Below are positions 15,505 through 16,787 of a stretch of DNA of 32,000 nt, piece after piece. Each line of letters starts with the position of its first letter. Position 1 is the first letter of the stretch. A program made the translations under genes and the position numbers. The notes below the pieces were generated by a model that had not been told where the DNA came from, did not search any database, and saw only the letters and a program-made list of their open reading frames with translations. Source of the DNA: Elusimicrobia bacterium GWD2_63_28 (GTDB taxonomy: Bacteria > Elusimicrobiota > Elusimicrobia > Elusimicrobiales > UBA9959); NCBI GenBank assembly GCA_001799895.1, contig MGUI01000051.1:1-32000 (forward strand). The letters are read 5' to 3'.

Positions 15505-15798
15505 CTAGCAGCAGGTGCCGTCGTCGCCGCAGTCGCAGTCCGGTTCCGTGCCTTTCAGGAAGCCGGTGCGCACGGCCTGCGCGCAGCCCACGCCTTTCTT
15601 TACGGTTATGGCGTCCACCGGGCAATTGCCGGCGCAGGCGCCGCATTCCATGCACAGGTCGGCGTCCGTGATGGCCGCCTTCCGGTTCTCCACCTTGAAA
15701 ACGGCGTGGGGGCAGACGACAGCGCACATGCCGCAGCCTATGCATTTGTCCACGTCCAGCTTCAGCGTGGAGACCCCGCGCAGGTATTCCAGCTTCAT
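15505..15798 (-). CDS. hgcB: HgcB-like mercury methylation ferredoxin (2x[4Fe-4S])
   Basis: 97 aa; CIGCGMCAVVCPH and CMECGACAGNCPV clusters, extra Cys in 'GVGCAQAV', C-terminal Cys pair 'GTCC*'. Start codon overlaps the stop codon of the adjacent hgcA. Confidence 0.93.
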   Translation of the reverse strand: MKLEYLRGVSTLKLDVDKCIGCGMCAVVCPHAVFKVENRKAAITDADLCMECGACAGNCPVDAITVKKGVGCAQAVRTGFLKGTEPDCDCGDDGTCC

Positions 15799-16787
15799 AA
15801 GAACCTCCCAACCGCCAGAATTATGAGCCCGGCCGCGGCGGCCAGGGCATGCGCCGGCATGGCCAGGCGCATCTCCTTCATTACGCCCGAGAGGGAGGTG
15901 TAGGTGGAGGCGCCGGTGAAATCCAGGCCGACGAATGAGGCGGCCGCGCCGTAGATCAGCGCCCTGGCCGCGAACTGCGCCGGGCTTTGGTCATGGGCCA
16001 GGGCCAGCAGGGCTGTGACCAGCAGGCCGGCTGCCGCGCTTTTTACGGCGAAGCTCCGTCCCGGCAGCCAGGGCAGCAGAGCGGGCACCAGCGCCCCTCC
16101 GGCGAACAGGGCCCCGAGGGTATAAGCCGCGTCCGCCCTGTAGCCGAGCAGGTAGAGCAGCGCGGCGGCCGGCAGCAGGTAGCGGCCGAAATGCACCAGC
16201 TGCACCGGCGCCAGTATCATCCTGTCGCTGAAATTGAAATTAACCCGGCGCATCTCCGGCGTGGCGCGGCCCAGGCGAAGATATTCGGGCAGGTCTTCAG
16301 CCCTGACCGGGCCGTAGGCTACGGAGAAACCTGTATAGGCCTTAACCCTGTGGGCGCTGACGCCGGGCGCGCCCAGCTGCGGCAGTATCACGGTCCTGTG
16401 GCTTACCACTTTCTCCAGGCCGGTTTCGGCTATGACACGCGCCAGCTCCCGCGTGCCGAAAGTGCCTTTGCCGGCGGCGCACCAGACATTGATCCCCTTG
16501 GTGTCCAGGACGAGGAGCCAGGCGGTCAGGCCCTTCAGGTTGGTGCGCAAGGCGTCGAAACTCAACTTGTAGTTGGCGGTGGCGAAGACGGGGGCGTTTG
16601 CGGCGGGGGACCCCAGGGCGTAAAGGCCGGGCTTTACTCGGTAGGCCATGCGGTTTATTCCCCAGCGGGCCTTCCAGGCCGCCAGTCTGTCGGCCCGGGT
16701 GTAGTCGGAGGAAATGGTTTCAATAGCCGCCGGCCGAGCGGCGCTCAGCCGCGGCGACAGCGTTACCTTCTGCGTATTTTTGTTCAT
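15795..16787 (-). CDS. hgcA: HgcA-like mercury methylation corrinoid protein
   Basis: 330 aa from MNKNTQKV; cap-helix motif GINVWCAAGKGTFGT (NVWCAAGK at 16467-16490); 'VSHRTVILPQLGAPGVSAHRVK'; C-terminal TM domain with 'LDFTGASTYTSLSGVMKEM'; directly followed by hgcB. Confidence 0.96.
   Translation of the reverse strand: MNKNTQKVTLSPRLSAARPAAIETISSDYTRADRLAAWKARWGINRMAYRVKPGLYALGSPAANAPVFATANYKLSFDALRTNLKGLTAWLLVLDTKGINVWCAAGKGTFGTRELARVIAETGLEKVVSHRTVILPQLGAPGVSAHRVKAYTGFSVAYGPVRAEDLPEYLRLGRATPEMRRVNFNFSDRMILAPVQLVHFGRYLLPAAALLYLLGYRADAAYTLGALFAGGALVPALLPWLPGRSFAVKSAAAGLLVTALLALAHDQSPAQFAARALIYGAAASFVGLDFTGASTYTSLSGVMKEMRLAMPAHALAAAAGLIILAVGRFL
16467..16490 (-). other. hgcA: HgcA corrinoid cap-helix motif N-V-W-C-A-A-G-K
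   Basis: Direct translation of the minus strand. Confidence 0.95.

Follow-up and report, generated by a model that had tools for sequence, protein, structure and literature searches.

An hgcAB gene pair flanked by arsenic genes

HgcA is a membrane-anchored corrinoid protein whose cobalamin, as established by work on HgcAB, is methylated in the Co(I) state, and an intact hgcAB pair is accepted as the genetic marker of methylmercury production. Such a pair lies in the DNA described here, a stretch of 32,000 nucleotides (nt) from Elusimicrobia bacterium GWD2_63_28 (GenBank assembly GCA_001799895.1, contig MGUI01000051.1, positions 1 to 32,000 of the forward strand), which is referred to throughout as the window. 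The first-pass annotation of this DNA had placed a complete hgcAB pair on the minus strand between positions 15505 and 16787, and both open reading frames (ORFs) are found at exactly those positions, wedged between two ars operons. The pair is defined by the following features:

15795 to 16787 (including the stop codon), minus strand: hgcA, encoding the corrinoid protein (NF040863; Pfam CdhD; 100% identical to P0001)
16467 to 16496, minus strand: cap-helix motif GINVWCAAGK, HgcA residues 98-107, with the Cys103 codon at 16481-16479 (alignment of homologs)
15798 to 16232, minus strand: C-terminal membrane domain of HgcA, residues 186-330, five helices, containing FTGASTYTSLSGV.KEM (AlphaFold2 model)
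15505 to 15798, minus strand: hgcB, encoding a 2x[4Fe-4S] ferredoxin with the lone Cys72, Cys88/Cys90 and the terminal Cys96-Cys97 (NF040864; sequence)
15795 to 15809, minus strand: hgcA/hgcB junction, with a Shine-Dalgarno sequence and an ATGA start/stop overlap (direct sequence reading)

As derived from the ORF list and the minus-strand sequence, hgcA starts with the ATG at 16787, stops with the TGA at 15797-15795 and codes for 330 amino acids (aa), while hgcB starts with the ATG at 15798-15796 and codes for 97 aa. A longer hgcA frame of 422 aa, starting from a TTG at 17063, was rejected as an artefact: it overlaps the neighboring arsR gene, and both the homologs and the public gene calls begin at MNKN. 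Direct reading of the sequence shows that hgcA and hgcB overlap by 4 nt (ATGA, 15795-15798). In addition, a GGGAGG Shine-Dalgarno sequence is positioned at 15809-15804, within the 3′-end of hgcA and 5 nt 5′ of the hgcB ATG. The presence of this dedicated Shine-Dalgarno sequence inside hgcA, combined with the ATGA overlap, indicates that the two genes are probably translationally coupled, as the first-pass annotation had already proposed from the overlapping stop and start. The same overlap of 4 nt is observed in 12 of 78 loci, seven of the eight close Elusimicrobia loci being among them.

The protein itself is not new to the databases. An HgcA identical at 100% (P0001) is already public in NCBI and JGI, a 100%-identical and slightly shorter call is recorded from Elusimicrobia bacterium GWD2_63_28, and DOYQ01000082.1 (GCA_003518445.1) as well as JGI metagenome contigs code for exactly this HgcA, flanked by the genes that flank it in the window. 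In NCBI and JGI the identical protein is named either “acetyl-CoA synthase subunit gamma” or “hypothetical protein”. The former name arises because Pfam detects in HgcA only the CdhD corrinoid domain (residues 48-164); in HgcB, it detects generic Fer4 domains. The genomes carrying the nearest HgcA proteins at the species level are all Elusimicrobia metagenome-assembled genomes (MAGs), with 65-91% identity, followed by a next tier of about 46-55% identity spread over many phyla.

Family assignment, signature residues and structure

A profile search of the kind suggested as a check at first pass places both proteins above the curated NCBI equivalog cutoffs and leaves the rival families under theirs. 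Specifically, HgcA matches the NCBIfam model NF040863 (HgcA_corrinoid) end to end with 412.5 bits (cutoff 275, E 1.1e-123), and HgcB matches NF040864 (HgcB_ferredoxin) with 125.3 bits (cutoff 99, E=6.2e-37). HgcA is also about 48% identical to P0111, a Desulfitobacterium protein named HgcA by NCBI.

The cap-helix signature GINVWCAAGK, pointed out in the first-pass annotation, corresponds to HgcA residues 98-107 with the core NVWCAAGK, and the alignment of homologs supports it. In particular, in a 34-sequence HgcA alignment (49-93% identity) residues N100, V101, W102, C103, A105, G106 and K107 are invariant, and Cys103 is the sole cysteine of the protein. A C-terminal block, FTG..T.S.SGV..E, is likewise invariant. 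The peptide LDFTGASTYTSLSGVMKEM, quoted at first pass from the membrane domain, is present in the translation. An AlphaFold2 model (mean predicted local distance difference test score (pLDDT) 85.7, predicted template-modelling score 0.75), built on the same 34-sequence homolog alignment and free of cofactor, shows a Rossmann-like N-domain followed by five long helices (193-213, 217-240, 246-262, 269-293 and 299-329), which bears out the membrane domain previously assigned to the C-terminal part. The top Foldseek match of this model is 9a0b_A, a computed model of HgcAB from Pseudodesulfovibrio mercurii ND132 (E 5.9e-20, 41% identity over 322 columns), with a match over the full length, and the corrinoid domains of the corrinoid iron-sulfur protein (CFeSP) rank next (E ~1e-6). 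No solved experimental structure of HgcAB emerged from the PDB sequence search, 9a0b being the sole HgcAB entry returned by Foldseek, and a search of papers for cryo-EM of HgcAB found nothing.

The likeness to CFeSP deserves consideration, as the gene could be, in accordance with its NCBI and JGI names, the AcsC/CdhE subunit of the Wood-Ljungdahl pathway. The database name, the Pfam CdhD domain and PDB matches to CFeSP with E ~3e-12 would speak for this assignment. However, the match of HgcA residues 49-170 to CFeSP large subunits is limited to the final ~120 residues of the latter, in the C-terminal corrinoid domain (about 318-439 of 445), and in this alignment Cys103 takes the place of the cap-helix Thr of CFeSP. 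HgcA lacks the N-terminal 4Fe-4S domain and the TIM barrel, and carries instead the five-helix membrane domain. Moreover, the score against the acetyl-CoA decarbonylase/synthase gamma (CdhE) model NF003195 is 74.6 bits, under a cutoff of 306, and no Wood-Ljungdahl genes lie nearby in the window. Domain architecture and profile cutoffs thus already refute this assignment, whose probability is negligible.

HgcB contains two CX2CX2CX3CP motifs (Cys19/22/25/29 and Cys49/52/55/59), the lone Cys72 and the terminal Cys96/97, and both peptides quoted at first pass for the ferredoxin, CIGCGMCAVVCP and CMECGACAGNCP, are present in its translation. The full HgcB architecture claimed for this 97-aa protein is therefore all there, and its pattern is conserved over 78 loci, in which the lone Cys within GVGCA, the EPxCxC element and the terminal CC recur. 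A further possibility is that the window encodes an HgcAB-like paralog that does not methylate, belonging to the fused type known from some Thermococci and other groups, as HgcA does give a sub-threshold match of 199.6 bits to the HgcAB_like fusion model NF043039. This score does not, however, reach the cutoff of 285 and is far lower than the 412.5 bits of the HgcA model, the two genes are separate ORFs with no fusion, and all the signature residues of HgcA and HgcB are present, which makes such a paralog extremely improbable. We consider it close to certain that the window carries a genuine orthologous hgcAB pair.

A conserved palindrome between hgcA and arsR

The gene upstream of hgcA is transcribed divergently and encodes a regulator of the ArsR family. 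Two features are of importance for the regulation of the locus:

16861 to 17247, plus strand: arsR, divergent from hgcA, 128 aa in the JGI call (HTH_metalloreg NF033788, 76.7 bits, cutoff 55; Pfam HTH_5)
16838 to 16863, no strand assigned: perfect 9-8-9 palindrome CATATATGC-N8-GCATATATG, 26 bp, putative ArsR operator and divergent promoter core (unique in the window)

The divergent ArsR contains an ELCVCEL motif (Cys38/Cys40), a site of the alpha3 As(III) type known from classical ArsR proteins but lacking the third Cys found in E. coli; several extra cysteines are located at the C-terminus. As to its extent, the call in one NCBI record (L082) is 177 aa long and overlaps hgcA by 74 nt, while the JGI call is 128 aa long.

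The divergent intergenic region measures 73 bp. The palindrome occurs once in the window, where shuffles give 0 occurrences expected by chance, and it is absent from the second arsR gene and from any other position of the window. On the plus strand it reads CATATATGCG-TATAAT-AGCATAT-ATG, with a consensus -10 hexamer 7 nt before the arsR start and the start codon itself contained in the right arm. This arrangement points to an arsR transcript with no leader or almost none. The palindrome is identical in four loci (L001, L002, L003 and L008) and nearly so in two others (L004 and L005), while the other intergenic bases diverge freely; because it is kept while its flanks diverge, it is probably an ArsR operator common to both divergent units. 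In L006 and L007, whose ArsR is only 41-46% identical, another palindrome, ATTATA-N-TATAAT, stands in its place. For the second arsR of the window, a separate promoter-like TTGACA and an inverted repeat of another sequence, TCTATT...AATAGA, are found immediately 5′ of the ATG at 12033 (region 11990-12035, plus strand); given these different repeats, the two ArsR proteins probably recognize different operators.

When metagenome contigs were scanned for the 20-nt core of the palindrome, ATATGCTATTATATGCATAT, 43 occurrences were returned, of which 20 are found in an arsR/hgcA setting. Eighteen of these 20 have enough flanking sequence to detect hgcA, and it is present in 17 of them, the exception being L125. 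A locus that combines arsR and the palindrome with a lack of hgcAB was sought, as a sign that hgcAB had been inserted beside an operator already in place; among metagenome contigs with enough flank none was found, the nearest case being the decayed remnant in L125. In other phyla, where arsR and hgcAB are co-directional (L016, L056, L058 and L075), inverted repeats bracket a TATAAT box located 7-27 nt upstream of arsR. For example, the repeat of L075 is TCGATTTGA-AGCATATAATAG-TCATATCGA, that of L016, overlapping the start, is TCTGCATATATG-TG-CGTATATGCAGA, and the half-sites of one Phycisphaerales locus resemble GCATATATG. This suggests a common design upstream of co-directional arsR-hgcAB in other phyla, in which the operator is placed over the -10 box and leaders are short or absent. 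On the whole, the control of hgcAB by ArsR and As(III) through the 26-bp palindrome is, as judged from the sequence, somewhat favored.

The arsenic gene neighborhood and its conservation

The hgcB-side ars operon and the genes that follow the divergent arsR are composed as follows:

12033 to 12323, plus strand: second arsR, 96 aa, CVCEL motif, heading the hgcB-side ars operon (NF033788, 80.7 bits)
12325 to 13626, plus strand: ArsP-family permease, 433 aa, with the vicinal Cys pair AVCSC (Pfam ArsP_1, 236.9 bits)
13636 to 13878, plus strand: Thioredoxin_3-like protein, 80 aa (ORF; PF13192 precomputed)
13880 to 14245, plus strand: DGC-domain protein (PF08859 DGC, E 7.8e-29)
14226 to 14810, plus strand: ArsF-family protein (NF040494, 91.2 bits, cutoff 60)
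14807 to 15499, plus strand: ArsG-family protein (NF040495, 220.5 bits, cutoff 200)
17279 to 17587, plus strand: HesB/IscA-like A-type Fe-S carrier homolog, 102 aa, Cys-rich C-terminus (Pfam Fe-S_biosyn, 39.2 bits; TIGR00049, 50.2 bits, under the cutoff of 58.8)
17596 to 18015, plus strand: arsC-like arsenate reductase, thioredoxin type, LMWPc fold (TIGR02691, 129.8 bits, E 6.9e-38, under the equivalog cutoff of 174.3; PF01451 precomputed)
18015 to 19073, plus strand: acr3 arsenite efflux permease (TIGR00832, 451.6 bits, cutoff 282.8)
19130 to 20041, plus strand: phosphonate-binding-type periplasmic lipoprotein, 303 aa, 3′ of acr3 and co-directional with it (Pfam Phosphonate-bd, E 2.5e-37)

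To survey this context, the window proteins were used as tblastn queries against 80 genome loci fetched with HgcA (9 from Elusimicrobia and 71 from other groups); these loci are the best matches to the HgcA of the window, and ArsR-family matches in them are not necessarily arsenic sensors. All nine Elusimicrobia loci contain ars genes, and in eight of them a divergent arsR lies directly upstream of hgcA and is followed by arsC/acr3. The phosphonate-binding-type lipoprotein gene is present in five Elusimicrobia loci, and the arsP-side operon in only some of these relatives. The ninth locus, L043 (Elusimicrobiales, 55% HgcA identity, positions 3288-9223), is organized as one co-directional series, arsR-arsP-trx-DGC-arsF-arsG-arsC-acr3-hgcA-hgcB, in which the acr3 and hgcA ORFs overlap. 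A single co-directional cluster is also found in L048 (6397-12249), in the order arsR-arsP-hgcA-hgcB-acr3-arsC-x-arsF-arsG, and both clusters are tightly packed, with overlapping or short junctions. Across these loci, hgcAB is accompanied by one and the same complement of about ten ars genes in several layouts, divergent in the window and inside a co-directional operon in L043 and L048. Outside Elusimicrobia, an ars-type gene lies within 8 kb of the pair in 29 of the 71 loci, a structural ars gene is contiguous and on the same strand in 14, and an ArsR-family gene is immediately upstream of hgcA on the same strand in 12.

A different fate of the locus is documented by L125, on the metagenome contig Ga0210017_1007877 (3175-3760). 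Here only the last 47 codons of hgcA (residues 284-330) are left and the hgcB sequence is distributed over two reading frames, while the palindrome and intact arsR, hesB, arsC, acr3 and phosphonate-binding genes are kept. L125 is a natural loss of hgcAB from an ars locus, and only intact pairs count.

The tight association described above raises the question of whether hgcAB might be a working part of the arsenic regulon, selected for the handling of arsenic or organoarsenicals or for the repair of arsenic damage, with mercury methylation as a side reaction. The two ars operons flanking the pair, its position inside the co-directional clusters of L043 and L048, and the frequencies of nearby and of contiguous ars genes outside Elusimicrobia all lend support to this reading, as does the greater sensitivity to As(V) of the hgcAB knockout of ND132. 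On the other hand, about half of the loci have no nearby ars gene, the hgcAB locus of ND132 is devoid of other ars genes, and HgcAB is not known to perform any arsenic chemistry. In addition, the intact ars genes of L125 next to a decayed hgcAB imply that ars function does not require hgcAB. A role of this kind is thus unlikely. A more specific form of it, which appears quite improbable, would have hgcAB as a module of the arsenic regulon, switched by As(III) and ArsR through the palindrome and acting on arsenic or another thiophilic metalloid, with mercury as an accidental substrate; for example, a methyl group might be transferred to As(III) to give methylarsenite, which would then be exported by the adjacent ArsP-type permease. 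If true, this would be important, and it would explain the persistence of hgcAB where mercury is absent.

Conversely, the ars neighborhood could be due to metal-related genes having clustered passively on an island that is mobile or variable, in which case regulation would not be shared and hgcAB would be driven by a constitutive promoter of its own. The hgcAB genes are widely reported as constitutive, weakly expressed and horizontally transferred, and the limited distribution of the arsP-side operon among Elusimicrobia relatives would fit this picture. A scan for promoter and terminator consensus sequences around hgcAB, also cited in its favor, found no terminators and a single promoter-like match, located inside arsR. 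However, the divergent arsR-hgcA junction and the palindrome are retained in relatives whose HgcA is 65-91% identical, the spacing of the 73-bp junction is tight, and ArsR control in ND132 provides an experimental precedent, making passive clustering rather doubtful.

Some further observations concern the neighboring genes. The arsG-like gene and hgcB are convergent, with 5 nt between their stops (15499-15505) and no terminator-like hairpin detected, and transcripts of the two units may overlap in antisense. The HesB/IscA-like protein, an unusual member of an ars operon, ends in the tail GSCGDGCSCGH and is encoded between arsR and arsC in six of the eight close Elusimicrobia loci; it may have a function in Fe-S repair or in the maturation of HgcB. 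An Rfam scan of the whole window, which would include elements such as a cobalamin riboswitch, gave no matches. The remainder of the window consists of ordinary chromosomal sequence, with genes for peptidases, ABC-2 efflux, FadL, WD40, TldD/PmbA, cysE/cysK-like proteins, AnmK and a major facilitator superfamily (MFS) transporter. In this part, a 289-aa protein made entirely of a WD40 beta-propeller (21525-22394, minus strand) adjoins the FadL-type outer-membrane gene. Between 22541 and 26346, a 691-aa minus-strand ORF with no Pfam match overlaps plus-strand ORFs, one of which has a PmbA/TldD domain, and the coding strand is therefore ambiguous there.

A proposed model for methylation and its control

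The elements described above can be assembled into a mechanism. By analogy with established HgcAB work, Cys103 of the cap helix would act as the lower axial ligand of cobalamin and promote methyl transfer to Hg(II). The HgcB ferredoxin, with its two [4Fe-4S] clusters, would return cobalt to the Co(I) state, while Cys72 and the C-terminal Cys pair probably handle Hg(II), and hgcB would be translated from the Shine-Dalgarno sequence within the 3′-end of hgcA. At the level of transcription, the ArsR protein with its As(III)-type ELCVCE site probably binds the palindrome, which spans both the TATAAT box and the arsR start codon. In this scheme, arsenite would lift the repression of hgcAB and of arsR-hesB-arsC-acr3 at the same time.

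The methylation capability put forward at first pass is supported, as a prediction, by every criterion of an hgcAB pair that can be tested at the sequence level, and the host organism is likely to possess the capacity to methylate Hg(II). Taken together, a genuine and intact hgcAB operon in a groundwater Elusimicrobia, with predicted methylation and putative control by ArsR, represents a reading that we hold with good confidence.

Several points weigh against it. As regards methylation, the activity stands in Elusimicrobia as a prediction, and the genes of the window give no information on the supply of cobalamin or on the methyl donor. The catalytic subunit of carbon monoxide dehydrogenase was not detected in Elusimicrobia methylators (McDaniel et al. 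2020). In the AlphaFold2 model, HgcA residues 95-111 (16455-16505), the segment of the cap-helix motif, appear as coil, with a mean pLDDT of ~65 for residues 101-110, the remaining corrinoid domain being confident. As regards control, the hgcAB transcript level is not predictive of the methylation rate in ND132 (bioRxiv 10.1101/2022.10.17.512643), a consensus scan of the intergenic region found no sigma-70-type promoter, and the conservation of the palindrome, to which an operator role is assigned indirectly, may reflect promoter elements alone. Furthermore, the 20-nt core is also found in 23 AT-rich metagenome contigs that are unrelated and contain neither an ArsR nor an HgcA homolog, and it is therefore not diagnostic on its own. 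In these contigs it may be due to chance in AT-rich genomes or belong to another element. The 23 contigs include L085, L086 and L121 of the L084-L126 series, and in some, for example L086 and L121, the core is part of longer perfect palindromes.

Another view of the pair comes from a 2026 preprint in which halomethanes are proposed as native substrates of HgcAB in model methylators; it reports dechlorination of CCl4 by heterologously expressed HgcAB (bioRxiv 10.64898/2026.04.26.720869). Applied to the window, the physiological function of the pair would be reductive dehalogenation. None of the window genes relates to halomethane metabolism, however, and the proposal comes from a single preprint and leaves the ars linkage unexplained, so that halomethanes appear very improbable as the physiological substrate here.

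Returning to the predicted mercury methylation operon under putative ArsR control, the hgcAB pair, the phylum and the arsenic linkage are all known in kind. What is added here is the divergent, shared-promoter layout with an ArsR of the canonical type, the conserved palindrome, the complete ars set that accompanies hgcAB and the two loci with hgcAB inside an ars operon. The locus adds one groundwater Elusimicrobia to the predicted methylators, and it shows that public records still misname the hgcA product as acetyl-CoA synthase gamma. Finally, the palindrome and the ars context bear on what regulates hgcAB and on why it evolved.

Comparison with known systems

The closest characterized counterpart is the HgcA/HgcB pair of ND132 (Parks et al. 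2013; model 9a0b), with which the window shares the two-gene architecture, the cap-helix Cys motif, the five-helix membrane domain and the HgcB Cys pattern, both pairs passing the NCBI equivalog models. Unlike ND132, the window host is an uncultured Elusimicrobia and the pair is known here from its sequence. In addition, the N-terminus of the window HgcA is short and lacks the Cys-rich leader of some homologs, and the ATGA overlap of the two genes contrasts with the gap of ~10-13 nt found in most lineages. As for the CFeSP large subunit (AcsC/CdhE; PDB 2ycl, 4djd), the likeness is confined to a homologous corrinoid-binding Rossmann-like domain, as HgcA has no 4Fe-4S or TIM-barrel domains, a Cys replaces the cap-helix Thr and a membrane domain is added.

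Metagenome studies have already documented hgcA in Elusimicrobia, and the hgcAB reference library includes Rifle Elusimicrobia MAGs (McDaniel 2020; Gionfriddo 2020, 2022). The exact source MAG was not found in the supplementary tables of published hgcA lists, in which sister Rifle Elusimicrobia MAGs are listed.

The flanking genes had been described at first pass as unlike the classical contexts. This part of the annotation does not really hold, since an arsR beside hgcA is the situation of Pseudodesulfovibrio, although co-directional there, and ars-hgcAB flanks have been published. Specifically, MAG neighborhoods in which acr3, arsC, arsM and arsR flank hgcAB have been described (McDaniel et al. 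2020, Fig. 6), genes for an ArsR-like regulator have been noted alongside hgcAB and ars genes in many Rifle MAGs (Gionfriddo 2022, bioRxiv 10.1101/2022.10.17.512643), and in a 2023 study 14 of 31 confirmed methylators had arsR no more than three ORFs upstream of hgcA. The window resembles these MAG neighborhoods in having acr3, arsC and arsR beside hgcAB. In the literature examined on the ars-hgcAB linkage, no description was found of the fuller ars set or of the conserved shared control element, and the text of bioRxiv 10.1101/2022.10.17.512643 mentions no palindrome, operator or promoter. The window, L043 and L048 thus differ from the published neighborhoods in their fuller set, which comprises arsP, a thioredoxin-like gene, DGC, arsF, arsG and hesB.

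With regard to regulation, the nearest precedent is the arsR2-hgcAB arrangement of Pseudodesulfovibrio/Desulfovibrio (Goni-Urriza 2020; Gionfriddo et al. 2022/2023), in which an ArsR/SmtB regulator is likewise immediately upstream of hgcA. In P. mercurii ND132, ArsR2 controls hgcAB and responds to arsenic and to S-adenosylhomocysteine (Gionfriddo 2022, bioRxiv 10.1101/2022.10.17.512643). The two systems differ in that arsR2 is co-transcribed with hgcAB in ND132, at a locus without the further ars genes seen in the window, whereas the arsR of the window is divergent and heads arsR-hesB-arsC-acr3; moreover, the window ArsR has the canonical alpha3 ELCVCE site, while ArsR2 has a four-Cys site. 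As ArsR regulation of hgcAB has already been published for Pseudodesulfovibrio, the locus described here refines this idea rather than constituting a discovery of it.

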